This document shows positions 26,149 to 50,136 of a stretch of DNA of 64,000 nucleotides, piece by piece (the first letter of the stretch is position 1; each line of letters opens with the position of its first letter). The translations under genes and the position numbers were made by a program. The stretch covers positions 96,001-160,000 of the IMG/VR virus record IMGVR_UViG_3300026549_000034. The stretch is one strand, 5' to 3'. This stretch comes from a virus. Lineage: Duplodnaviria > Caudoviricetes. Under the pieces are notes generated by a model. The model did no database searches and was not told where the DNA came from. It saw nothing but the letters and a program-made list of their open reading frames with translations.

Positions 26149-26760
26149 TTATTCTTTATACCAGCTTGGAATATTTTTTAATGAAGTACAACCTTTAAAT
26201 GTATTAAACATATCAGTAACTTTAGATACATTCCAATTACTTAAATCTGCATTAAAATCATAACATTCATAAAACATATTATCAATTCTTTTTATATTAG
26301 ATACATCCCAATTGCTTAGATCAGAATTAAAATCATAACAAAATGCAAACATAGAACTTGTAATTGTAACACTTGATACATCCCAATTACTTAAATCAGA
26401 TTCAAATTTATTACAATCATAAAACATATGATGCATATCAGTAACTTTAGATACATCCCATTTACTTAGATCAGATGAAAAATTCTTACAATATAGAAAT
26501 ATACCATTCATATCAGTAACATTACTTACATTCCATCTTGATATGTCTATATTATGAGGATCTAACTTATTAAATAGTAATGACATATCGGTTATTTCAC
26601 TAACATCAATATCATTTAAATCTGCATCCTTATCCCTTTCTAATCTGGCTTCAACTATGTTTCTTAGATCATTTTTACTTTTAGGTTTACATGTATAATG
26701 ATCTATATTAATGTCTTTTATATTAAGCTTTTCTAATATGTAGTTATTTAGGTTCTTCAT
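26149..26760 (-). CDS. DUF285/BspA-like 25-aa repeat protein (5 repeats) with EKLNIK leader
   Basis: Repeats of LS.W(D/N)VS.V..M..MF..C..FN.D; leader MKNLNNYILEKLNIKDI. Confidence 0.88.
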   Translation of the reverse strand: MKNLNNYILEKLNIKDINIDHYTCKPKSKNDLRNIVEARLERDKDADLNDIDVSEITDMSLLFNKLDPHNIDISRWNVSNVTDMNGIFLYCKNFSSDLSKWDVSKVTDMHHMFYDCNKFESDLSNWDVSSVTITSSMFAFCYDFNSDLSNWDVSNIKRIDNMFYECYDFNADLSNWNVSKVTDMFNTFKGCTSLKNIPSWYKE

Positions 26761-26783
26761 ATATTTTGTTTTTTTATGATTTA

Positions 26784-27239
26784 TTATTTGTACCAGCTTG
26801 GTTTATTTTTTAAAGAAGTACATCTAAAAAACATATCTTTCATATTTATAACATTAGATACATCCCAATTATTTAAATCACAATTAAAATATTTACAAGA
26901 ATCAAACATATAGCTCATATAAGTGCATTTTGATACATTCCAATTACTTAAATCAGAATTAAAATTTTTACAATATACAAACATATTACTCATATTTGTA
27001 ACATTTGAAACGTCCCATTCAGATATATCAATATTATGTGGATCTAATCCGGCAAATAAACTGGCCATATTTGTTATTTGGCTAACATCAATATCATTTA
27101 AATCAGCATTTTTATCTTCTTTTAAACGTTTTTCCAATATCTGTCTAAGTTCTTCTTTTGTCTTAGGAAAATATTTATATTGATTTCTTATATCTTTTAC
27201 GTTGAGCTTCTCAAATATGTAGTTATTTAAGTTCTTCAT
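26784..27239 (-). CDS. DUF285/BspA-like repeat protein (3 repeats) with EKLNVK leader
   Basis: Same repeats and N-cap; MKNLNNYIFEKLNVKDI. Confidence 0.88.
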   Translation of the reverse strand: MKNLNNYIFEKLNVKDIRNQYKYFPKTKEELRQILEKRLKEDKNADLNDIDVSQITNMASLFAGLDPHNIDISEWDVSNVTNMSNMFVYCKNFNSDLSNWNVSKCTYMSYMFDSCKYFNCDLNNWDVSNVINMKDMFFRCTSLKNKPSWYK

Positions 27240-35900: not shown

Positions 35901-37610
35901 TTATTTAGTTTCATTTGCTTTCTTTTCAGCTTCTTCTTTAAATTTCCATGACAATTCATCATCTAATACATGCTTCTTTGCTGGATTAATAAGATATCCC
36001 ATTTTTGTCATGATGTCTCTATTAATAAGTATTTTTTGCTTTTTGTTTCTATTGTCAACTAAAGCAAATTCAGCATTTAATAATTTACGTGATCCTATTT
36101 GAATACATGGTATAAGAACTGTTTTTCTATTTTCAGTTACTTGACCGACAATTGCATTTGATTCACCATGTTTCTTGAAATAATATTTTTTGCCTTCAAT
36201 TACTGCTTCAATTAAAGTACCGTTTTCTTCTAATGAATCACATCCAATTGTACTTGCCTTAGCACCATTTCCTGTATCAAATTTTGCTTCAAGAGTAAAT
36301 TGCTGTTCATTTTCTGTTGTAAATGTAATGTCTTCAAGATAACCTATTGATTTTGGTTCTAATACTAATTCATTTATATCATTAATGTTGTCTAAAAGTA
36401 TCTTTACAAAGTTTTCTCCAATTACTTCAGATATACCGTCAGTACCTGGTGAACTATTATATTCTAATACAACATTATCACCAACTTCTGGATTACTTCC
36501 TGAAACTAACGGCATAATGTCTACAGCACACCATGGCATTCCAGATATTTTAGCAACCTTTAATGCAATTTCCTTTTGTTCTTCAGTCAGTTCAACCTTT
36601 TCTGCAGTTGCACCTAAAGATACATTACTTCTAAAATCACCAGATATCTTTACACGTTTCATAGCCGCAAGTATCTTTTGTTGTGTTCTCATAGTCAATA
36701 CATGTACACGAATATCACCGCCATCAGCTTCTTCCTTCTTTTGTACTAACAATTCAAGATCTTCATCTACTGCAAACATTGCTTGAAGTATAGCTAAAAT
36801 ACCTTTACCATTTGTCATAAATACACCAGTACCGCCATGTCCATCAAGTATTTTTACAACATATTCAAACTTTTCATCTGCTTTTAAATCTTTACCAATT
36901 TCTTTATTTACTCTCTTAAGTTTCTTTGATAATGATTCTTCACCATTCTTAATATCATTTTTAGATACTAAAGTAAAACGTGGTTGTGGAATTTCATATC
37001 TTTCAAGTAATACTGCAGATGTATACTTATTAGATGCCTTCTTTGCCGATTGAATTGGATTTATTACAAAGAATCCCCATGCTTGAAGTTCTTTGATAAG
37101 TTCCATACATTCTTCGGATTCTTGAACTCCAAGACGAGTAATTACAATAGTATCAATATTTGATTGTTCATTGACTTTATATTTTGTCTTATCATCACTA
37201 AATGAAATTTCTTTATCAGTAGCTTTATATGAAATTTCATCAGCAACAAATGTAAATATTTCTATATCTGTATTCTTTACAGCATCATTAAGATTTTTTA
37301 GAGTCTTATTTGTTTTTTCTTCTCTATCATTTGTAAAGAAAAGAATGTTCTTAAAGAAATAATTAGACTGTTCTATTTTGTCCTGAATACTATCTTTAGA
37401 TTCAGAATCTTCCATTTTCTTATTAACTTCATCAGATATGTCATTATCATTTTTCTCATCAGGTTTATCATCCTTAATATCTAATAAATTGTCTAATTTA
37501 GTTTCTTCCTTAGTTTCTTCTTCCTTAATAATATTTTGTCTTTTCTGTTTAAGAGTTTCCATTACTTCTGCAATAGTTTCAGGATCTCTATAGTCATATT
37601 GCTTTTTCAT
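35901..37610 (-). CDS. RimK-like ATP-grasp peptide ligase fused to a C-terminal retropepsin-like (RimB-type) protease
   Basis: NKY, VKILDGHGGTGV, DIRVHV, FRSNVSLG, AVDI, LEYNSSPG; C-terminal AKFDTGNGA...ILINR aspartyl-protease pattern. Confidence 0.85.
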   Translation of the reverse strand: MKKQYDYRDPETIAEVMETLKQKRQNIIKEEETKEETKLDNLLDIKDDKPDEKNDNDISDEVNKKMEDSESKDSIQDKIEQSNYFFKNILFFTNDREEKTNKTLKNLNDAVKNTDIEIFTFVADEISYKATDKEISFSDDKTKYKVNEQSNIDTIVITRLGVQESEECMELIKELQAWGFFVINPIQSAKKASNKYTSAVLLERYEIPQPRFTLVSKNDIKNGEESLSKKLKRVNKEIGKDLKADEKFEYVVKILDGHGGTGVFMTNGKGILAILQAMFAVDEDLELLVQKKEEADGGDIRVHVLTMRTQQKILAAMKRVKISGDFRSNVSLGATAEKVELTEEQKEIALKVAKISGMPWCAVDIMPLVSGSNPEVGDNVVLEYNSSPGTDGISEVIGENFVKILLDNINDINELVLEPKSIGYLEDITFTTENEQQFTLEAKFDTGNGAKASTIGCDSLEENGTLIEAVIEGKKYYFKKHGESNAIVGQVTENRKTVLIPCIQIGSRKLLNAEFALVDNRNKKQKILINRDIMTKMGYLINPAKKHVLDDELSWKFKEEAEKKANETK

Positions 37611-39155: not shown

Positions 39156-39716
39156 ATGTATTTGCTAATTATTGAAGGTACTGATAATATAGGTAAAGAT
39201 ACTTTGAAAAATCAATTGATAGATCTATTTGATACTGTTACATTAATTCATTGTAGTTCACCAAAATCAAGAGGATTTAAGTCTTATGAACAAGATAAGA
39301 CATTCTTAACATATGCTGATAATATTGTAAATGGTGTATATGATGGAACGGAATGTATTATAATGAATAGATCACATTATGGAGAATATGTATATGGACA
39401 AATATATAGGCACAGAAATCCTATAGAAATTTCATCTATGATTAATGATTTTGATAAGCTAATAGATTCGAGAATTGATTTAAAAGTAAAATATATTCAA
39501 TTATTAAGTACATCATTAGAATTAAGAAAGAAATATGATGACAATAAATCATTATCATTAATGGATGAACAAAAAATGGAAATAGAAAATAAGCTTTTTA
39601 TGGATGTATACAATCAATCAAAATTTGATAAAAAGCTTATATATGTAAATGACGGTGACAATTTTAGACGTAAAGAAGATATTTATAAAGAAGCATTAGA
39701 TTTTATAAATTCTTAA
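39156..39716 (+). CDS. dNMP (thymidylate-like) kinase
   Basis: IEGTDNIGKDT P-loop, NRSHYGEYVY. Confidence 0.85.
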   Translation: MYLLIIEGTDNIGKDTLKNQLIDLFDTVTLIHCSSPKSRGFKSYEQDKTFLTYADNIVNGVYDGTECIIMNRSHYGEYVYGQIYRHRNPIEISSMINDFDKLIDSRIDLKVKYIQLLSTSLELRKKYDDNKSLSLMDEQKMEIENKLFMDVYNQSKFDKKLIYVNDGDNFRRKEDIYKEALDFINS

Positions 39717-39741: not shown

Positions 39742-40536
39742 ATGAATACAAAAGATATATTTAATATTTTTTTAGAAAAATATAATAATAGAGAATTTCG
39801 TACAATAGGTAATAATGTTCAGCAATCAATAACATTAGAAATTCAAAATGCCCATTTTGAAGTTGATAAACCATGGATTGTTAGAGAACCAAATTATGGC
39901 TATTATAAACGTGAAGAAAAATGGTATTATTCACAATCATTAAATGTTAATGATATTCCTGAAGGTGCACCAAAAATGTGGCAAGCTTGCGCAACACCAG
40001 ATGGATTTATAAATTCTAATTATGGGTGGTGTATATTTTCAAAAGAAAATGGTGATCAGTATAAAAACTGTAAACAACATTTAATTGAAGATCCACATAC
40101 TCGTGAAGCTATTATGATTTATAATCGTCCATCAATGCAACAAGAATATAATAAAAATGGAATGCATGATTTTATGTGTTGTCAGAATGTTCAATATTTT
40201 ATAAATGAATATGATGAATATAATGATATACTTGATTGCATAGTTAATTTTAGAAGTAATGATGCAGTATTTGGATTTAATAATGATGCACTTTGGGCAA
40301 ATCATATATTAGAAAAACTTGCTAATGAATTAAGACCTATTTGGAATAATAAATATGATAAAAATATAGCGGCGGGTCATATATATTGGAATGCCGGTTC
40401 ATTACATATTTATGAAAGACATTTTAAAATTTTAACAGATTTTAATACTAAACAAAATGTCTATAAATATTATGAAGATATTGAAAAACAAAATAACTTA
40501 TTTAGAAAAACCCAAGAATCAATAAATAATGGATAA
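39742..40536 (+). CDS. gp42: dCMP hydroxymethylase (T4 gp42-like)
   Basis: INSNYGW, IMIYNRPSM, DFMC catalytic Cys, RSNDAVFGFNND (cytosine-specifying Asp), WNAGSLHIYERHF closely follow T4 gp42. Confidence 0.92.
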   Translation: MNTKDIFNIFLEKYNNREFRTIGNNVQQSITLEIQNAHFEVDKPWIVREPNYGYYKREEKWYYSQSLNVNDIPEGAPKMWQACATPDGFINSNYGWCIFSKENGDQYKNCKQHLIEDPHTREAIMIYNRPSMQQEYNKNGMHDFMCCQNVQYFINEYDEYNDILDCIVNFRSNDAVFGFNNDALWANHILEKLANELRPIWNNKYDKNIAAGHIYWNAGSLHIYERHFKILTDFNTKQNVYKYYEDIEKQNNLFRKTQESINNG

Positions 40537-41119
40537 AATTCGAGACATAAAATATAAGTTATTAAAAGAACTAAAATGGGATCATATTAAAGAAACTGGA
40601 TATGATTGTAATAGTGGTACAAAATATGTAGAGGTTAAAAATGCATTATTTGAAGTAGATAAAGACAGGATATTCAATACAATTCCTCAACTTTCATATA
40701 TGAGTCCACAATGGTATATAGATAATTATGATCCTATATTAAATAAGAATGATCAATTAAATAAATGTATAAGTAAATTAGTAGAAAATACAAATTCAAG
40801 ACAAGCCGTTATTATAATGGGCGATACTAATGAATTTGATAATATAGATAATACTTTTATATGTACAATGTATATGCATATATTTCTAAATAAGATAAAA
40901 TATGATGTATATGAATTAGAATATATTGTACATATGAGATCTAATGATTGTATAGAATTTATTACTGATTTACAATGGCATAAGAAATTATATAATGATA
41001 TCTTAAATCAATTAAGAGAAAAAACTAAATTAATGATTATGCCAAAAAATATTATATGGAATGCAGACACTATACATTTATATGAACAATTTTTTGAACA
41101 AGCATTAAAAGAATCTTAA
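40529..41119 (+). CDS. Shortened, divergent gp42/thymidylate-synthase-fold paralog
   Basis: SRQAV, FICT, HMRSNDCIEFITD, WNADTIHLYE; lacks the internal segment leading to INSNYG. Confidence 0.8.
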   Translation: MDKIRDIKYKLLKELKWDHIKETGYDCNSGTKYVEVKNALFEVDKDRIFNTIPQLSYMSPQWYIDNYDPILNKNDQLNKCISKLVENTNSRQAVIIMGDTNEFDNIDNTFICTMYMHIFLNKIKYDVYELEYIVHMRSNDCIEFITDLQWHKKLYNDILNQLREKTKLMIMPKNIIWNADTIHLYEQFFEQALKES

Positions 41120-41125
41120 TTTTAT

Positions 41126-41815
41126 ATGAAAAAACTTATTTCAGCTTCTATTATGTGTGCTAAGAACTTATTGAACTTAGAACACGAAATTAAAGAACTA
41201 GAGAAAAACAATATTGATATGTTTCATCTAGATGCTATGGATGGACATTTTGTAAATAATATTACTTTTGGTCCAGACATATTGAACGCTATTCATAAAT
41301 GTGTTACAAAACCTTGTGATTATCATTTAATGATGGATGATCCTTTGACATTTATAGAACGTCTCGAGCTTTCGGCAGATGATATTGTTACAATACATGC
41401 AGAAATTGATCCAGAAAAATTTGATGCAACTATAAAATATTTGAATTCTTTAAAGAAAAGAGGAATTAAGATTGGGGTTGCGATTAATCCAAAAACATCA
41501 ATAGAAGGATTGTATGACTATTTGGAATATATAGACATGATATTAGTTATGCTTATTAATCCTGGATTTGCTGGTCAACCTATTATTGGTGGTATTATGC
41601 AAAAGCCGATATATGTTCGTCAATATTTAGATTCTATAGGGTATGAAAATATAATGATATCTGTTGATGGCGGTGTATCTAATGAACGTGCAGAAATATT
41701 AGCAAAAGGCGGTGTAAATGTATTTGTTGGCGGTACTTCTGGATTATTCAAAAGAAATCAAAATATTAAGACAAGTATTGAAAATTTACGAAAATCATTA
41801 AATACTTCTGATTGA
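41126..41815 (+). CDS. Ribulose-phosphate 3-epimerase family protein, allulose-6-phosphate 3-epimerase (AlsE)-like
   Basis: HLDAMDGHFV, DYHLM, VDGG; AlsE-type SIMC, PGFAGQP and GTSGLF. Confidence 0.88.
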   Translation: MKKLISASIMCAKNLLNLEHEIKELEKNNIDMFHLDAMDGHFVNNITFGPDILNAIHKCVTKPCDYHLMMDDPLTFIERLELSADDIVTIHAEIDPEKFDATIKYLNSLKKRGIKIGVAINPKTSIEGLYDYLEYIDMILVMLINPGFAGQPIIGGIMQKPIYVRQYLDSIGYENIMISVDGGVSNERAEILAKGGVNVFVGGTSGLFKRNQNIKTSIENLRKSLNTSD

Positions 41816-41866: not shown

Positions 41867-43531
41867 ATGAAAGTATTTATAGCAACATCTGGTATAGGTT
41901 CTAGACTTTTAGAACTAACAAAATACACAAATAAGTCAATGATTAAGATAGGTAAGAAGCCAGTTATATCTTATATTATTGATGAATATCCTGAAGATAC
42001 AGAATTTGTAATTACTTTGGGATATTTTGGTGATCATGTACGGCAATATCTTGAATTGGCATATCCAAACAAGAAAATAACATTTGTAACAGTTGATAAT
42101 TATGCAGGTCCAGGATCTTCACAAGTATATTCACAATTACAGGCAGAAAAATATCTTCAAGAGCCTTTTATATATCATGATTGTGATACTATAATTGAGA
42201 ATCTTCAGGATCAAATTCCAATGAAGTTCAATTATAATTTCTTAGTTGGATATGAGACAAATTCGGAATTATATGATGCATTTGATTATGATATTAATAC
42301 AAAGTCAAAATCAAAGAAGTACGAAGTATATGATTTGATTAAGACATATATGAAGCCAGATTCTTTAGTCGGTATGTTGGCTTTTGTCGGTATTTGTGGT
42401 ATATATGATTATAAGGAATTTTGGAAATATATGCACATGGCTTATGAAAATGAACAAGTCCCTTATGATTTCTTAGTATATCATAAATATGGTATGTTTA
42501 AAGATAATTTGAAAGCAATTAAGGTTACTAATTGGGTAGATACTGGAAATATAGCCGGTGTAAAGAATTATCGTAAGCAATGTAAAGATCAATTTTTTAT
42601 ATTAGATAAGAATGATCAGGCAATTTTCATAATCAATAATAAAGTAATTAAGTTCTTTGCAAAAGATGGCGTTGTTGATGATCTTTTGAAACATTATGAA
42701 ACAATTAAAGATTTTTGTCAACCTATAACTGAACATACTAAGAATTTTATATGTTATGATTATATAGATGCTGAGGATGCTATAGTAAAAATGAATCCTG
42801 TTCGTTTTGAAAATTTTTTATATTCATTAAAGAATAATAAATTTTGGTCTAAAGTAGAAAATATTGATGATAAATTGTTTTTTGAGTCTATGAAGAAATT
42901 CTATATAGACAAAAATATGCAACGGGTAAATCAATTTAAAGAATTCTATAAAGTATCTGAAGATGAAGACATATATGTAAATGATATATTGATTCCTAAA
43001 GAATATACTATTGAAAGAATGCTTAATGAAATGATGAATATGAGAGAATGGAAAGAATCTGTTCCTTGTATTTGGCATGGTGATTTTGTATTAGACAATA
43101 TTCTTTATAACCAAAAGGAAGATAAATATATTTTACTTGATTGGAGACCTAATTTTATAAACATTAAAGAATATGGAGATAGAAACTATGATTTTGGTAA
43201 AATGAATCATAATATTACTTTTAATTTCTATAGCGCATATAATGATCTCTATAATGTACAAATAAATGATAATAAGATTTACATTAATATGCTTTGTAAT
43301 AATTATGTATATGAATGTAAAGAAATATTAAAGAAATTTGTAAATGATAATTATAATGTAAGATTTGAATATATTGAAATGATAACTGGTGCATGTTGGG
43401 TAAGTATGTCTCCATTATATTTCTTAAATCCTATTTCTAAACTATTGTTCTATATGGGTAAGCTTACTTTATATATTAATTTGATGAAGCTTCAAAATAA
43501 AAAAATAAATACTATATATGATGAATTATAA
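41867..43531 (+). CDS. Sugar-phosphate nucleotidyltransferase fused to an APH/choline-kinase-like kinase
   Basis: N-terminal SGIGSRL...NKSMI, HDCD, WVDTG; C-terminal HGDFVLDNIL, LLDWR, YDFGK. Confidence 0.85.
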   Translation: MKVFIATSGIGSRLLELTKYTNKSMIKIGKKPVISYIIDEYPEDTEFVITLGYFGDHVRQYLELAYPNKKITFVTVDNYAGPGSSQVYSQLQAEKYLQEPFIYHDCDTIIENLQDQIPMKFNYNFLVGYETNSELYDAFDYDINTKSKSKKYEVYDLIKTYMKPDSLVGMLAFVGICGIYDYKEFWKYMHMAYENEQVPYDFLVYHKYGMFKDNLKAIKVTNWVDTGNIAGVKNYRKQCKDQFFILDKNDQAIFIINNKVIKFFAKDGVVDDLLKHYETIKDFCQPITEHTKNFICYDYIDAEDAIVKMNPVRFENFLYSLKNNKFWSKVENIDDKLFFESMKKFYIDKNMQRVNQFKEFYKVSEDEDIYVNDILIPKEYTIERMLNEMMNMREWKESVPCIWHGDFVLDNILYNQKEDKYILLDWRPNFINIKEYGDRNYDFGKMNHNITFNFYSAYNDLYNVQINDNKIYINMLCNNYVYECKEILKKFVNDNYNVRFEYIEMITGACWVSMSPLYFLNPISKLLFYMGKLTLYINLMKLQNKKINTIYDEL

Positions 43532-44477
43532 TGACATAAAAATAGCTGGTGTAACATGTGCTTTTAATGAATCACAAATGGTAAAATACGTTATGCCATA
43601 TTGGGAACGTATTAAGCCAGATAAATTAATTGTGTATGATAATATGTCAACTGATAATATGTGTGAACTATTAAGAAAATATCCGTATGTAGAAATAAGA
43701 AAATTTGATACTGGCGGTAAATTTAGTGATGAAACACATATTAAAATAAAGTCAGAAACAGCCAAAGAATTAGCAGATGCTGGTTATGATTGGATTTATA
43801 TAGGTGATTTTGATGAAATATTATATACAGAAAATGAAAACTTTAGAGAAGTATTATATGAAATTCAACAAATGGGCGGTAATGTATTTTGTAGAGATAT
43901 GGTATTACCGTTTGATACTACATTAGATGTTTCATTTGATACTAATAAATTACCTCATCAATGTGTACCGAATTATATTACATCTCATGATTGGTCTTCA
44001 TTTTGGGGTTTTTCTAAAGTAACATTAATACATAAGTCAGTACCAAATATACGTTTTAACAATGGGTGTCATCAGGCATATTTTCCGCAAAAAGGAAATG
44101 CTGATTTAGTTGTATTCGGATATCCTATTATTGGTATACATCTAAAATATATTGATTGGAATGTATTGGAAAAGAATTCACATGATAAGCATGATAGAAT
44201 ACAATGGAGAATTCCTGTAGCAAAATCAAAAGTTGATGTTCAATTTACAAAACATTTATATAGTAGATCATGTGGTATGAATAATATAAACAACATGATA
44301 TCTGCAATGAAGAAAAAATTTGATAAAGTAAATGTTAATGTAGATACAACAACTTGGGATAAGTTTAAAGAATATTATGATAATGAATATGATGTAACAA
44401 AAGTTAAATTTAAGCAATATTTAAATAGAACAAATTTTATAACTAAAGATTATTATGAGACAAATAGAAATTCGTAA
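43518..44477 (+). CDS. GT-A fold glycosyltransferase (GT2-like)
   Basis: TCAFNE, VYDNMSTD, WIYIGDFDE, GCH, HLKY. Confidence 0.8.
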   Translation: MMNYNDIKIAGVTCAFNESQMVKYVMPYWERIKPDKLIVYDNMSTDNMCELLRKYPYVEIRKFDTGGKFSDETHIKIKSETAKELADAGYDWIYIGDFDEILYTENENFREVLYEIQQMGGNVFCRDMVLPFDTTLDVSFDTNKLPHQCVPNYITSHDWSSFWGFSKVTLIHKSVPNIRFNNGCHQAYFPQKGNADLVVFGYPIIGIHLKYIDWNVLEKNSHDKHDRIQWRIPVAKSKVDVQFTKHLYSRSCGMNNINNMISAMKKKFDKVNVNVDTTTWDKFKEYYDNEYDVTKVKFKQYLNRTNFITKDYYETNRNS

Positions 44478-45804
44478 AGCAGAAAAGAACATTTTAATTG
44501 GTAAAATTGGAAAGTCAATTAAATTTAAACATTTGGATATTCGTATAGGCGGTGATGCTTGTATGATATTTTATTCATCAATAGCAAGAATGAATCCGGA
44601 GTATAATTTCTTTTGGATTGGTCCTAATCAAATGAATAAATTAAGTGATGAAGAATATGATTATATCTTCCCAAATCATAATGTATATTCAGCATATGAT
44701 TCTAATTATGAAGATCCGAATCATCATCCTTTTTATCCTATTATTAAGTATTTTAAGGACAATAACATTAAGATAGATTTTGCATTACTTATGTCAGGAA
44801 TGTGCTCTGGAATAAATGTACCTAACTTCTTAAGAAGTCCAAAGACAGGAGAATATGTAAAGATACTTAATGCATTCAAAAATTATTGCGGTCCTTATAT
44901 CTATACTCTTAATCAAACTGGAGTACCATTCTATCTTATTTCTGAAGATGCAAGATATATTACAACAAATGCTTCTGACTTATATAATCGAGAAAGAATA
45001 ATCTTCACACAGACTAATGGATATTTTGAACCAATAGAACATATTACTTCAGAAACTGATTGGACTAAGACTACAGAAAAAATTAAATGTATATATGGAT
45101 ATGTAGAAAGAATATTCATGATGGGTCTTGATAAAAATTGGAAAGAAAATATTGATATTGACAGAAAGTTAAATAGTAAAGGAAATAGATTAATTGTAAT
45201 ATCTAATGGTTGTGGTCAAAAGGACATAAATCGTGCAAATGGTGGTAAAAGTTCACGTCTTCCTGGATATAAGAAATATATTATAGACAATCTTAAGGGT
45301 ACAGAATTTGAGAATACTAAGATATATGGACAATGGGACGATAAGACTTATGAAAAATATCCCCAAATAATTGATAAACCATTAGTAGAACTTGATGATG
45401 AGGTGGCTGATGCAAGATATTCATTGGTATATTCTATTATGCCGGGCTTTGTAACCGTAAAAGCATGGGAAATGATTATCAAAGGTCTTATTCCATTTAT
45501 TCATCCAGACTATGATAAAGACAGATTATTAGGTCTTCCAGAATATTGTTATCTTAAAGATGAAAAGGATCTATTAAACAAAATGAGAGAATTGGATTCA
45601 GATAATGACAAATATCTTAAGCTATTAAATGATTGTTTTGCATGTATTTCAGAAGATGATCTTAATGGAAAACGAATGAATAACTTTATATTCAATAAGA
45701 TTTCTGAAGATCTTGGATTTGATTATGTAGAAAAGAATGGTTGTGAATCTATTTTTGATCATTTCTCTAAAGATGTATTTGATTTCAATAAGATTAAAAA
45801 GTAA
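44455..45804 (+). CDS. DNA beta-glycosyltransferase-like protein (T4 BGT fold)
   Basis: YLISEDAR (BGT YLFTDIR), KIYG, GFVTVKAWEM...FIHPDYD (BGT NFITLRVWET...LIDEEFD). Confidence 0.72.
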   Translation: MRQIEIRKAEKNILIGKIGKSIKFKHLDIRIGGDACMIFYSSIARMNPEYNFFWIGPNQMNKLSDEEYDYIFPNHNVYSAYDSNYEDPNHHPFYPIIKYFKDNNIKIDFALLMSGMCSGINVPNFLRSPKTGEYVKILNAFKNYCGPYIYTLNQTGVPFYLISEDARYITTNASDLYNRERIIFTQTNGYFEPIEHITSETDWTKTTEKIKCIYGYVERIFMMGLDKNWKENIDIDRKLNSKGNRLIVISNGCGQKDINRANGGKSSRLPGYKKYIIDNLKGTEFENTKIYGQWDDKTYEKYPQIIDKPLVELDDEVADARYSLVYSIMPGFVTVKAWEMIIKGLIPFIHPDYDKDRLLGLPEYCYLKDEKDLLNKMRELDSDNDKYLKLLNDCFACISEDDLNGKRMNNFIFNKISEDLGFDYVEKNGCESIFDHFSKDVFDFNKIKK

Positions 45805-45806
45805 GT

Positions 45807-46304
45807 ATGGATAAATGTATTGTTATAAGTGATGTAGACGGTTGCCTTACGGATGGCGGATTATACTATACTGAAGAAGGTAAAGTAATGAAACGTTTCG
45901 GTGCCGGTGATCATGAAGGTCTTAAATTATTGAAGAAAAATGGAATATCTGTAGAGTTCATTACTGCAGATAAAGTAGGATATCCTATTGTTGCTAAAAG
46001 AATGAAGGATATGTCTAATTCAACTATTCATATTTTTAATGAGATTGAAAGGTATGATTTTGTAAAGTCATTGAAAAACAAATATGAAACTGTTGTATTC
46101 TTTGGTGATGGGCCTGGCGACGCTTCATTAGCAAGTAAGATGGCATGTGATATATTTGTATGTCCTAATCAATCTCGACAGGAGGTAAAGCTTGTAGCTG
46201 ATTATATTACTGAAACAGATGGTGGACATGGCGCATTCTTAGACATGGCAATATGGGTATCTAAAAAAATAAATAAAGAAAATTATAAAGAATTATATGA
46301 CTAA
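45807..46304 (+). CDS. KdsC-like HAD sugar-phosphate phosphatase
   Basis: DVDGCLTDG, FITA, FGDGPGD, GGHGAF. Confidence 0.88.
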   Translation: MDKCIVISDVDGCLTDGGLYYTEEGKVMKRFGAGDHEGLKLLKKNGISVEFITADKVGYPIVAKRMKDMSNSTIHIFNEIERYDFVKSLKNKYETVVFFGDGPGDASLASKMACDIFVCPNQSRQEVKLVADYITETDGGHGAFLDMAIWVSKKINKENYKELYD

Positions 46305-47577
46305 TAATATAAAATGGGCAGCAATACAACCATTGACTGGTGGTCTATATTTAGGAACAGAAGAAGCTATAGGTCATCCAGCAGAATGGATATTGACATA
46401 TAAAGGATTAAATACAATTAAAAAGGATAAAGCCGATAATGTTACTGGTGTAGGTAATGAAGCATATCTATTAAACTATCTACATAAAGTTGATAGGGAA
46501 GTACCATATTATCAAATGAATAGAAAAATGTTTGATACTAATTTGGATGATATGAATCCGGAAATATTACTTAATGATGAACCTGCTAAGCCAAATTATG
46601 AAAATTTAGATTTAGTAGTTGCATTACCGGTATGTAGTGGATTATCTATGGTTACATCTGCTGGACAAGAAACAAAAGACGGTCGTAATTGTAATATGCT
46701 TTATTTAGCAAAATTGGCATTAACAACAATCAAACCAAAAATTTATATATTCGAAAACGCTCCTACTTTTATGGGTGAACGTGGTGATAGTTTACGAGTT
46801 AGTTTTGAAAAACTTGCTAAAGATAATGGTTATTTAATTGTATATTATAAGACAGATACACATAAACATTATAATTGTCAACGACGTCCAAGAACTTTTA
46901 TATTTTTTATAAGAAAGGATGTAACAAATAATCAATTGCCTGTATTAGATTTTGAAGACAAACCAATGTCTATTCAAGAATTTTTCGACAATATTCCTTA
47001 TGGTTTGACTAATCAAGAAGAATGTAAGCCACGTCCTCATAATTATATATTATTAGATTTCTTCAAAGAAAAATATGGAGAGGAATGGTTTAAGACATTA
47101 GACAATAAGTGCTTAATGAAATTGATAGTAACAGATAAACTATTTGATGAATTATTTGAATATTGTAAGACTTATACAAAAATATCTGAAGATGATATGA
47201 ATAAGTCTATAAAATATTTTAAGCATGTAAAAGATAAGACTGACAGGAAGTTAAATTGGTTTGGTTCAGATATAGTATTTTATAAAAAGGAATTACCGTC
47301 AGTACAATTTAGAAGTATTACAACAACGATGCATCCAAATTGTAAACGAGTATTGACTATAAGAGAAAATCTTGAATTAATGGGAATGCCACATGATTTT
47401 GATTGGTTTGGGGATGAATCTAATCTCCCTAAAATTGCACAAAATGTTCCTGTAAAAACAGCTAAATTTATAATGTCGCAAGCAGTCAATATATTAGAAA
47501 ATAATATCAATATATTTATGGATGGTAATGTTTTATACATAAATAACATTAATAACAAAATTCAGTTAGTGGCATAA
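46297..47577 (+). CDS. C5-cytosine DNA methyltransferase-like protein
   Basis: Atypical motif I QPLTGG, IV PVCSGLS, VI FENAP, VIII QRRPR, IX RVLTIRE...MGMP, X IAQNVP. Confidence 0.8.
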   Translation: MTNNIKWAAIQPLTGGLYLGTEEAIGHPAEWILTYKGLNTIKKDKADNVTGVGNEAYLLNYLHKVDREVPYYQMNRKMFDTNLDDMNPEILLNDEPAKPNYENLDLVVALPVCSGLSMVTSAGQETKDGRNCNMLYLAKLALTTIKPKIYIFENAPTFMGERGDSLRVSFEKLAKDNGYLIVYYKTDTHKHYNCQRRPRTFIFFIRKDVTNNQLPVLDFEDKPMSIQEFFDNIPYGLTNQEECKPRPHNYILLDFFKEKYGEEWFKTLDNKCLMKLIVTDKLFDELFEYCKTYTKISEDDMNKSIKYFKHVKDKTDRKLNWFGSDIVFYKKELPSVQFRSITTTMHPNCKRVLTIRENLELMGMPHDFDWFGDESNLPKIAQNVPVKTAKFIMSQAVNILENNINIFMDGNVLYINNINNKIQLVA

Positions 47578-47599
47578 AAACAATTATTCTTTTTATATG

Positions 47600-47626
47600 A
47601 AATGAGGATCTTAAAGATCCTCATTT
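47600..47626 (+). terminator. Intrinsic terminator closing the modification operon
   Basis: AAATGAGGATCTT-A-AAGATCCTCATTT followed by a T-rich run. Confidence 0.8.
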
Positions 47627-47662
47627 TTATTTTTAAATATAAGAATATGAAACAAAATATTA

Positions 47663-48730
47663 ATGAAAATTTTTCAAATATTATTAAATAAAACAAAAAA
47701 TAGTTCATATAGATATGCTGAAGAATTATATCTATCATTATCATCTATAGAAGATATTGATATTGACCAAAGTATAATAGTTGATAAAAGTGAATTTAAT
47801 CCAGATTTGATAGATATAATTAATTCTTATGATTACGTTTTTATTCATTCAATATCAAAAGATAAAGATTTATATAACATATTAATAAATTTTATTAAAC
47901 CTAAAAAGATATTATTTATTACTCATACTATATTAAAGCAATGGCATAATGATATTAATTTATCATATATTATTCCATTATTGCGAAATGTAAGTAAAAT
48001 AGTAATTAATCCACTTGCATTAGATATAATAAATGAAATTAAGGAAAAAATATCTGATGATCAGTTTAACAAAAAATATGTAGAACTTAAATATGTTTAT
48101 AATTTTTATTTGTTTAATACAATAAATAAAGATAATATCATATCAATGATATCAAATAAGGGAGTACGAACTAATTATGATTTATTCATTAATTTATTTA
48201 AAAACAAAGAAATATTAAATAGAGATTTTATTTGGAAATTATACGGTGTAACAAAGAACATTCAAACTTATTATATTAATGATTTATATATAAACAATAA
48301 AACACAAAAACCTTCATTAATAACTAATTTTGATACAACAGTTATTTCAAAAAATATGATAAATGTATATGGAGAAATAGACAGAAATACATATAAAGAA
48401 GTTATAGAAAAATCATTATTTACATGCAATTTTGATAATGAATCTTATATAAGTTATAATATAATAGATATAATAGGCAATGGATCTATTCCAATAATGT
48501 CAAAAACTGTAGCGCAAAACATAAGAATAAATCAAAAACAAACATTATATGATCTTAAATGCGGTATATTTATTAATGATACATTTGATGAACAAGCTAT
48601 AATAACTATAAATAAATTAGTACAAAGTCCTAATACATACATAAATACATTAAATAAGCATGTAAATATTTTTAAACAAATTTTCAATAATTCAGAAACA
48701 ATCAATAAATTATTACAAAATATAATATGA
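47663..48730 (+). CDS. Degenerate DNA alpha-glucosyltransferase-like (GT-B) protein
   Basis: INSYDYVFIHS, IKPKKILFITH, YNIIDIIGNGSIPIMSK align by eye with T4 AGT; key motifs are altered. Confidence 0.55.
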   Translation: MKIFQILLNKTKNSSYRYAEELYLSLSSIEDIDIDQSIIVDKSEFNPDLIDIINSYDYVFIHSISKDKDLYNILINFIKPKKILFITHTILKQWHNDINLSYIIPLLRNVSKIVINPLALDIINEIKEKISDDQFNKKYVELKYVYNFYLFNTINKDNIISMISNKGVRTNYDLFINLFKNKEILNRDFIWKLYGVTKNIQTYYINDLYINNKTQKPSLITNFDTTVISKNMINVYGEIDRNTYKEVIEKSLFTCNFDNESYISYNIIDIIGNGSIPIMSKTVAQNIRINQKQTLYDLKCGIFINDTFDEQAIITINKLVQSPNTYINTLNKHVNIFKQIFNNSETINKLLQNII

Positions 48731-49431
48731 AAAACATAAATAATTACATATCAGAGAAGCTCAATATAAAAAATATTAAAGTACATCAATATAAGTATTT
48801 TCCAAAGACAAAAGAAGAACTTAGAAAAATCTTAGAAAAAAGATTAGATGAAGACAATAATGCGGATTTGAATGATATTGATGTTAGTGAAATAACTGAT
48901 ATGTCATTACTATTTAATAAGTTAGATCCACATAATATAAATATATCTGGCTGGGATGTAGGTAATGTTACTGCAATGGGTGCAATGTTTAATGGATGTG
49001 ATAATTTTAATTCTGACTTAAGTAAATGGGACGTTAGTAAGGTTACTAATATGGATTCAATGTTTGCTGATTGTGGAGAATTTAATTCTGATCTAAGTGA
49101 ATGGGATGTATCTAAAGTTACAAATATGCAAGCTATGTTTACTAGATGTCATAAACTTGATACCGACTTAAATAAATGGGATGTATCTAATGTTACTGGA
49201 ATGGATTCAATATTTTATGGTTGTAATAACTTTAATTCTGACTTAAGCAATTGGAATGTATCTAATGTTACTGATATGTATAAAATGTTTTATGATTGTA
49301 ACAGCTTTAATTCTGATCTAAGTAAATGGGATGTAAGTAATGTTACTGATATGCGTAATATGTTTTTTGGATGTGATTCGCTAAAAAATAAACCAAGCTG
49401 GTACAAGAATAAAATAAAAATTAAAAAATAA
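48727..49431 (+). CDS. DUF285/BspA-like repeat protein (6 repeats) with EKLNIK leader
   Basis: MKNINNYISEKLNIKNI; 25-aa W(D/N)VS repeats. Confidence 0.88.
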   Translation: MKNINNYISEKLNIKNIKVHQYKYFPKTKEELRKILEKRLDEDNNADLNDIDVSEITDMSLLFNKLDPHNINISGWDVGNVTAMGAMFNGCDNFNSDLSKWDVSKVTNMDSMFADCGEFNSDLSEWDVSKVTNMQAMFTRCHKLDTDLNKWDVSNVTGMDSIFYGCNNFNSDLSNWNVSNVTDMYKMFYDCNSFNSDLSKWDVSNVTDMRNMFFGCDSLKNKPSWYKNKIKIKK

Positions 49432-49452
49432 TATATAATATATATAAATGAT

Positions 49453-50136
49453 ATGAAAAACCTAAAAGACGTCATTATAGAGAAGCTCAATATAAAAAAT
49501 ATTAAAATACAATATACTTGTCATCCAAAAACAAAAGTAGAACTTCAATTAATATTGAGAGAAAGACTATCAAAAGATAATAATGCTAATTTGAATGATA
49601 TTGATGTTAGTGATATAACCGATATGTCTAATTTATTTGAAAAATTAAATCCTCATAATATAGATATATCTGAATGGAATGTATCAAATGTTATCAATAT
49701 GAGTTATATGTTTTATGATTGTCAAAATTTTAACTGTGACTTAAGTAAATGGGACGTAAGTAATGTTACAAATATGATAAATATGTTTTATGATTGCAAA
49801 GAATTTAATTCTGACTTAAGCAAATGGAATGTAAGTAATGTTAAAAAAATGAATGGTACATTTGCTGGCTGTATAAAATTTAATTCTGATCTAAGCAATT
49901 GGGATGTTAGTAATGTTAATAATATGGGTGGACTATTTGCTAGATGCCAAAATTTTAATGCAGATCTAAGTAATTGGAATGTATCTAATGTTCAAAACAT
50001 GGTAAATATGTTTTATGAATGTGAAAAATTTAAAGGCAAAGGATTAGAAAAATGGAAACCAACCAAATTATTAATATATAAGAATATATTTTATAAGACT
50101 CAATTAGAAAAAAATCCTCCAAAATGGTATAAATAA
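49453..50136 (+). CDS. DUF285/BspA-like repeat protein (5 repeats plus a degenerate one) with EKLNIK leader
   Basis: MKNLKDVIIEKLNIKNI; 25-aa repeats. Confidence 0.88.
   Translation: MKNLKDVIIEKLNIKNIKIQYTCHPKTKVELQLILRERLSKDNNANLNDIDVSDITDMSNLFEKLNPHNIDISEWNVSNVINMSYMFYDCQNFNCDLSKWDVSNVTNMINMFYDCKEFNSDLSKWNVSNVKKMNGTFAGCIKFNSDLSNWDVSNVNNMGGLFARCQNFNADLSNWNVSNVQNMVNMFYECEKFKGKGLEKWKPTKLLIYKNIFYKTQLEKNPPKWYK

Follow-up and report, generated by a model that had tools for sequence, protein, structure and literature searches.

The question raised by this locus is why a phage should carry a ketose-phosphate 3-epimerase between genes for a dCMP hydroxymethylase and for glycosyltransferases, and which sugar phosphate that epimerase acts upon. 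The original prediction was that the enzyme bears hexulose (AlsE) rather than pentulose (Rpe) signatures, and that it would convert fructose-6-phosphate (Fru6P) to psicose(allulose)-6-phosphate and so fix the identity of the sugar. The window, the whole stretch of 64,000 nucleotides that was analysed, belongs to a virus record (G000) of 193 kb, 27% G+C and 68% completeness, whose close relatives measure 392-412 kb. Nine closely spaced plus-strand genes form a conserved jumbo-phage operon here, with the epimerase gene in fourth place and a terminator-like hairpin at the end (Table 1). This hairpin is a consensus match only, two having been found against 1.7 expected by chance, and a promoter scan gave chance levels only.

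Table 1. Genes of the operon, motifs of its epimerase and adjoining features, in window positions
Feature	Position	Strand	Evidence or remark
dNMP kinase, hmdCMP kinase candidate	39156..39716	+	profile with relatives matches HY126 cluster kinase, E 2.4e-10; conserved in cluster
T4 gp42-type dCMP hydroxymethylase	39742..40536	+	T4 gp42 structure, E 4.9e-56
Shortened second thymidylate-synthase-fold paralogue, accessory	40529..41119	+	absent from L004, L005, L116-L118
Long-loop (AlsE-like) ketose-phosphate 3-epimerase	41126..41815	+	229 aa; predicted Fru6P to psicose-6-P
SIMC motif, beta-1	41147..41158	+	aa 8-11
PGFAGQP loop after beta-6	41561..41581	+	aa 146-152
GTSGLF phosphate-binding loop after beta-8	41732..41749	+	aa 203-208; Rpe loop one residue shorter
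AfhE-like nucleotidyltransferase + sugar-phosphate anomeric kinase	41867..43531	+	PF00483 and kinase matches
GT2-family glycosyltransferase, accessory, possibly for a second sugar	43518..44477	+	PF13704; window and L001 group only
BGT-like GT-B transferase, candidate hmC glycosyltransferase	44455..45804	+	Foldseek
KdsC-like HAD phosphatase	45807..46304	+	TIGR01670, 73 bits, below cut-off
C5-methyltransferase-like protein	46297..47577	+	PF00145; co-occurs with GT-B family
Terminator-like hairpin closing the operon	47599..47627	+	13-bp stem, T run
Divergent AGT-like ORF past the terminator, accessory	47663..48730	+	24% to 416-aa ORF of L004

The motifs claimed for the epimerase (SIMC, PGFAGQP and GTSGLF) are all present in the ORF, and those given for the E. 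coli enzymes agree with the K-12 sequences (NC_000913.3), which read SLMC, PGFAGQP and VGTSGLF in AlsE and SILSADF, PGFGGQ and AGSAIF in Rpe. The extra residue in the last phosphate-binding loop is also borne out by alignments, where a one-residue gap appears for Rpe chains 2fli, 7b1w, 1tqj and 1tqx and none for AlsE 3ct7. Work by Chan et al. in 2008 on the E. coli AlsE is said to have tied loop length to specificity through a loop deletion; AlsE and Rpe also accept each other's substrates. With AlsE (3ct7) the phage enzyme has in common the fold, the His/Asp/His/Asp metal site, S-x-M-C, PGFAGQP and the long GTSGLF loop, but AlsE serves allose catabolism whereas the phage enzyme lies in a biosynthetic operon; with Rpe (TIGR01163; 2fli) it shares the PF00834 family, the fold and the catalytic residues, but the three housekeeping-Rpe marks that we looked for in it (SIL[SA], PGFGGQ and the short beta-8 loop) are absent. 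Its metal and catalytic residues H34, D36, H67 and D181, corresponding to His34, Asp36, His67 and Asp176 of AlsE (PMC12216980), are intact and are invariant in 43 homologues, and the TIM-barrel model has a pLDDT of 93.5. The motif set is not a matter of chance, because the three marks co-segregate in 81 bacterial homologues (54 short-loop with no Cys and FGG, 19 long-loop with Cys and FAG, 8 incomplete or mixed); PGFAGQ and GGTSGL are kept in 35 of 35 near-full-length close homologues of the phage epimerase.

As foreseen, automated annotation would file the gene under the pentose-phosphate pathway: it matches PF00834 above cut-off (164.6 bits) and passes the NCBIfam 'ribulose-phosphate 3-epimerase' model NF004076 (185.6 bits against a cut-off of 165), and it does not reach the cut-off of the AlsE model NF007266 (177.1 against 271). 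Nor does it reach that of the rpe equivalog TIGR01163 (184.7 against 212.6), on which it scores slightly above its AlsE-model value. The best PDB sequence match is AlsE 3ct7 (137.7 bits; best Rpe, 2fli, 127.3), and identity is 37% to E. coli AlsE and about 31% to E. coli Rpe. Foldseek with the epimerase model did not rank AlsE above Rpe (rank 8); this tool cannot separate the two.

The phylogeny proposed in the original prediction, with Rpe and AlsE references, came out in part as expected. In a careful 36-row tree, from which the AU tests are taken, the union of phage enzymes and canonical Rpe as one group is rejected (p=0.005), but an exclusive grouping of the phage enzyme with enterobacterial AlsE, a long branch of unsure placement in this tree, is also rejected, at the borderline (p=0.048); the phage epimerase instead takes a well-supported position within a set of long-loop enzymes from gut Bacteroidales and Clostridia. 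A larger, 136-row tree was made in quick mode, and the AlsE of C. innocuum and AgmD are in neither. Of S52, Y134, T142 and D147, listed as residues of the AlsE clade (PMC12216980) and mapped here via E. coli AlsE, the epimerase has one of four (the Tyr), the other three sites holding G, L and N, which are the ancestral states. The 37% identity is itself no obstacle to an AlsE reaction, since functionally proven AlsE-type enzymes stand at 31% to E. coli AlsE (AgmD; PMC8599513) and 35% to Klebsiella AlsE (C. innocuum AlsE; PMC12216980). The departure from Rpe stands on the rejected grouping and the long loop, while the score below the NF007266 cut-off and the single AlsE-clade residue tell against full AlsE identity: on sequence criteria the phage enzyme is not a canonical Rpe and is AlsE-like, with membership of the AlsE family proper not demonstrated and an uncharacterised long-loop subgroup around it.

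The four bacteria with the nearest long-loop homologues hold another copy, which is canonical short-loop in G005, G006 and G008 and untyped in G007; since a canonical Rpe is retained wherever these genomes were typed, the long-loop enzyme is an added activity. The bacterial long-loop genes neighbour ribokinase-like kinases, GatD-like dehydrogenases with IspD-like transferases, or RpiB. In Bacteroidales and a Bacilli genome (L008:8261-10675, L191, L193, L201) an IspD-like gene, a GatD-like dehydrogenase and the long-loop epimerase lie by surface-polysaccharide genes, and such sets predict a CDP-allitol or CDP-altritol pathway. Gilliamella apicola, whose genome has seven PF00834 matches, combines RpiB, a long-loop epimerase, a transketolase-like protein, a canonical Rpe and a transaldolase-like protein in one operon (L256:644-6630). 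GenBank phage matches to the epimerase are distant (31-39%) and mostly short unannotated records resembling bacterial DNA, and a single-sequence scan of viral contigs with the epimerase gave no match, alignments being needed. A weak PF00834 match in G003 (E 0.02) was rejected as an epimerase, lying inside a nucleotidyltransferase-like ORF, as were weak SIS matches in G002 as an isomerase, lying inside a 3727-aa ORF.

The other genes of the operon indicate what the epimerase might supply. The hydroxymethylase is about 45% identical to Aeromonas phage dCMP hydroxymethylases and, by the residue criteria that separate dCMP hydroxymethylase from hydroxylase (D169N; PMC13326640), has L143D, N177D and the expected Cys146 in ThyA numbering and keeps D169 (the Asp of RSND). 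Because D169 is kept, the base would be hydroxymethylcytosine (hmC) and not RB69's hydroxy-C, which we rejected as the modified base. The product of the gene after the epimerase aligns over its full length with the HY126 nucleotidyltransferase-kinase (hhalign 97%, E 4.6e-11, 465 columns), XAN60479.1 being taken as AfhE by position and architecture. For the GT-B protein the top Foldseek match is T4 beta-glucosyltransferase (E 1e-7, TM about 0.4, from a low-confidence model of pLDDT 60), and its homologues lie within hydroxymethylase clusters of phages Planchet, 9183 and XG4. The KdsC-like HAD, which is fused to an HxlB-like isomerase in L015 and L016, would strip the 6-phosphate in the role of AfhF or GmhB.

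The C5-methyltransferase-like protein accompanies the GT-B family in most loci, marine ones included, although C5 of hmC is occupied. The 416-aa ORF of L004 that resembles the ORF past the terminator has a weak PF11440 match (E 0.004). Divergent from the operon and upstream of it, a RimK-like ATP-grasp protein with a C-terminal DTG (protease-like) domain (35901-37610, minus strand) is kept in L001, L004 and L005.

Taking together the sequence features, homologies and gene order observed here and the absence of an isomerase from a 97%-complete relative, we infer every substrate and product of the following pathway, in which a hexulose-6-phosphate 3-epimerase reaction probably feeds DNA glycosylation. 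The metal-dependent epimerase, working like AlsE in the biosynthetic direction, would form D-psicose(allulose)-6-phosphate from D-fructose-6-phosphate as the pathway entry; the AfhE-like kinase domain would place a phosphate onto the anomeric hydroxyl of the cyclic sugar-6-phosphate, the KdsC-like HAD would remove the 6-phosphate, and the nucleotidyltransferase domain would make an NDP-sugar. The BGT-like enzyme could then transfer the sugar onto the hmC provided by the gp42 homologue, and the glycosylated hmC might shield the phage DNA from host nucleases.

The core of this pathway (epimerase, nucleotidyltransferase/kinase, GT-B and HAD) recurs in at least eight other phage loci: L001, L004, L005, L006, L116, L117, L273 and, counted only as far as its contig reaches, L118. 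In most close relatives its operon includes the dNMP kinase, gp42 and the BGT-like enzyme; in L006 and L273 no gp42 adjoins the core. Several counts include the same phage from two collections (L001/L017/L098; L005/L097/L119; L103/L134). In 77 viral loci the same nucleotidyltransferase/kinase family has as its neighbour a GatZ/KbaZ-like protein (PF08013 is matched by 9 of 25 members, with a best E of 3e-5, and PDB 3txv at E 1e-4), and in 74 of these loci a mannose-6-phosphate-isomerase (PMI-II) cupin adjoins the kinase; GatZ and KbaZ are Fru6P 4-epimerases (PMC11907403). An HxlB (6-phospho-3-hexuloisomerase)-like SIS domain (88-119 bits, below cut-off) goes with a long-loop epimerase in L014-L016, L103, L121, L129, L131, L132 and L145, and KdsD is the isomerase partner in RB69 and HY126. 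The GatZ/KbaZ-like and HxlB-like partners of the kinase therefore both point to Fru6P. The survey suggests that the AfhE-type kinase/nucleotidyltransferase is a general module, that an adjacent epimerase and isomerase would tell which sugar a given module makes, and that such modules point to enzymes for rare NDP-sugars.

These related clusters differ among themselves. About 75 viral contigs (L012:7652-10480 and most of L020-L096; marine in the sole named record) have the PMI-II cupin, AfhE-like nucleotidyltransferase-kinase, GatZ/KbaZ-like 4-epimerase and AfhF-like HAD as a tight module, with no hydroxymethylase or BGT-like GT-B nearby, and are predicted to make an NDP-talose, -galactose or -tagatose donor for surface glycosylation. 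The HxlB-coupled loci, L019 among them, have a distinct long-loop epimerase lineage with a PGVLG motif in most, their SIS domain is sometimes HAD-fused, and L016 has a thymidylate-synthase-fold gene of non-gp42 type; such clusters predict allose or altrose, or a net C4 epimerisation via a 3-hexulose. Two cultured phages, Planchet of Enterococcus (L010:4275-10803) and XG4 of Pseudoalteromonas (L011:100-6580), have the hydroxymethylase, AfhE- and AfhF-like proteins and a GT-B of the same family, but their clusters lack an epimerase and their genomes a SIS gene; PLANC_62, annotated 'glycosyltransferase', is the nucleotidyltransferase/kinase. We take phage phiVPE25 to be related to Planchet. Glucose has been assumed as the DNA sugar of phiVPE25 (PMC4999554), and that of Planchet/XG4-type phages may be another. 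The related jumbo phages of L018 (2915-13437), L102 and L130 have a second, split activation module of separate nucleotidyltransferase, HAD and kinase, with an NDP-sugar epimerase in some and up to two GT-B copies; in L018 there is, besides, a nucleotidyltransferase/kinase of the window type without epimerase or isomerase, and in L018 and L272, where the cluster has neither, a fructosyl version could be made.

As to the substrate, ring chemistry has to be considered alongside these partners. Xylulose-5-phosphate (Xu5P) cannot cyclise, its O5 carrying the phosphate, whereas psicose-6-phosphate closes to a furanose. In the AfhE/AfhF route the kinase acts at the anomeric hydroxyl of a sugar phosphate in ring form, arabinose-5-phosphate in HY126 being converted to the 1,5-bisphosphate by the kinase, to the 1-phosphate by the HAD and to UDP-arabinose by the nucleotidyltransferase (PMC13326640). 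Conversion of Fru6P to psicose-6-phosphate is thus likely, because the kinase pairs with Fru6P enzymes elsewhere and Xu5P cannot form the needed ring, and we hold this to be probably the reaction of the epimerase. The hexulose specificity originally proposed is supported by the loop, the tree (as not Rpe), the related-virus partners and ring chemistry; membership of the AlsE family goes beyond the evidence.

The opposite reading, a pentulose epimerase turning ribulose-5-phosphate (Ru5P) into Xu5P to feed a xylose, lyxose or xylulose donor, gains from the slight lead of the rpe model over the AlsE model and from AlsE being promiscuous for Ru5P; the nearest bacterial context, IspD and a Zn-dehydrogenase, would also fit a pentitol route. 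The only characterised AfhE-family pathway also uses a pentose from Ru5P (PMC13326640). We nevertheless consider it improbable, given the long loop and the AU rejection of the Rpe grouping: hosts make Xu5P with their own Rpe, Xu5P is acyclic and, to judge from gene content, the pentulose is not rescued in the phage, no isomerase being encoded. It is scarcely credible that the gene is a metabolic auxiliary, raising flux through the pentose-phosphate pathway to supply nucleotides and unconnected to the adjoining operon, as the automated annotation would have it, since the motifs are of a non-housekeeping type and the nucleotidyltransferase/kinase, GT-B and HAD stand alongside in every phage locus with enough sequence, despite changed surroundings. 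It is unlikely, too, that the NDP-sugar has a non-DNA target (virion or host surface) or derives from another ketose phosphate (sedoheptulose-7-phosphate or hex-3-ulose-6-phosphate). The GatZ-coupled relatives in viral glycosylation islands without hydroxymethylase or BGT-like GT-B nearby, the loci without adjacent gp42 and the further GT2 and GT25 genes in the same genome as the cluster would suit another target, but here and in most close relatives the core shares its operon with the dNMP kinase, gp42 and BGT-like enzyme, and the one extra loop residue suits a six-carbon substrate.

If the substrate is Fru6P, the final sugar does not follow from the enzyme's identity, contrary to the original prediction, because related clusters usually have an isomerase that makes an aldose of the ketose phosphate, and the likely hosts have RpiB. 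With an isomerase accompanying the epimerase in those relatives, an aldose is probably what the family usually makes. The slightly preferred end point in this phage would run from psicose-2,6-bisphosphate through psicose-2-phosphate and NDP-psicofuranose to psicosyl-hmC; psicose, by direct ketose activation, is our tentative candidate, allose (or altrose) is nearly as likely, other outcomes together are less so, and a pentose has a small share. The window clade has no isomerase in its cluster. An arabinose-5-phosphate isomerase (SIS) was found neither in the 68%-complete record nor in the 97%-complete relative G001 (410 kb), and in G001 there is none of SIS, HxlB, RpiA, RpiB, PMI-II cupin or a xylose-isomerase-fold gene. 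Kinase residues R276, H454, N513 and H518, which 67-68 of 68 kinases coupled to GatZ retain, as do the HxlB-coupled kinases shown, are H, F, S and Y in the window clade, and the isomerase-free L018, L272 and L273 have some of the same changes; this is a hint and not a correlation, because the isomerase-free loci appear to be one lineage and the events are not independent. It is conceivable that the AfhE-type kinase phosphorylates C2 of psicofuranose-6-phosphate, giving NDP-psicose and psicosyl-hydroxymethylcytosine, which if true would mean a DNA coated with a ketose and, besides, a nucleotide sugar not previously described. CDP-fructofuranose biosynthesis in Campylobacter is said to be a precedent for ketose activation, which we do not use as evidence. 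In angustmycin biosynthesis allulose-6-phosphate is activated at its anomeric carbon (PMC8599513).

Alternatively, after the same epimerase reaction, RpiB or another isomerase of the host would give allose-6-phosphate (less likely altrose-6-phosphate), to be activated at C1 and placed onto hmC, a possible but somewhat less likely route. It would restore the usual family set of epimerase, isomerase (KdsD, PMI-II cupin with GatZ, or HxlB-like SIS), kinase/nucleotidyltransferase and HAD; E. coli RpiB is an allose-6-phosphate isomerase (PMC10576766), and RpiB is present in five of five Bacteroidales genomes tested. On the other side, the phage itself encodes every other step, sister lineages encode their own isomerase, the isomerase-free lineage has altered otherwise invariant kinase residues, and acceptance of psicose-6-phosphate by a Bacteroidales RpiB is putative, as is the host.

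The proposed psicose pathway may be set beside known systems. The Afh system of phages HY126, RB69 and DLP3 (PMC13326640) likewise has a self-made NDP-sugar, a homologous kinase/nucleotidyltransferase fusion and a HAD phosphatase, with a thymidylate-synthase-fold cytosine modifier, dNMP kinase and GT-B adjoining, but its entry enzyme is an arabinose-5-phosphate isomerase where ours is a 3-epimerase, its base is hydroxy-C where hmC is predicted here, its HAD is of AfhF type where ours is of KdsC type, and the GT-B of our phage shows no detectable relationship to the transferase of the HY126 cluster. T-even phages, which make glucosyl-hmC with gp42, gp1 and beta-glucosyltransferase, have the gp42-type hydroxymethylase and BGT-like transferase in common with it, but T4 takes UDP-glucose from its host whereas this phage would build its own donor. 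AgmD of angustmycin (psicofuranine) biosynthesis (PMC8599513), likened here by description, is an AlsE-like enzyme making allulose-6-phosphate biosynthetically for anomeric activation and joining to a nucleobase; that system uses a PRPP-synthetase homologue and a pyrophosphate donor to give an N-nucleoside antibiotic, where the phage would use kinase, HAD and nucleotidyltransferase to give an NDP-sugar for DNA. In the open literature, subscription papers being outside the scope of the search, we found no psicosyl, allosyl or fructosyl DNA and no allulose-6-phosphate epimerase in a phage. Glucose, arabinose, galactose and a few others make up the sugars known from phage DNA. The phage system would thus be a variant of self-supplied NDP-sugar cytosine hypermodification, in which the epimerase chemistry is known and the likely DNA product is new. 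If this is correct, what would have been filed as a 'pentose-phosphate auxiliary gene' becomes the step deciding the chemistry of an anti-restriction coat, and five or six genes would suffice to test the sugar in E. coli.

The cluster occurs in bovine and sheep gut metagenome runs, among them two rumen-type RNA runs of one sample that contain 86-92% of its words, the sole indication of expression; we take the virus for a giant phage of the cattle rumen. From the OmpA-like and PARCEL-repeat genes and the nearest bacterial epimerases we infer a Bacteroidales host. In the whole record CTAG (0.35), CATG (0.62) and GGCC (0.66) are rarer than expected; we set four-base palindrome counts aside as uninformative on DNA modification. 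A shared N-terminal leader resembling MKNLxxYIxEKLNIKNI is found at 48727-50136 and 26149-27239 of the window and in many more places of the record, and several of the genes bearing it carry PARCEL/DUF285 repeats.
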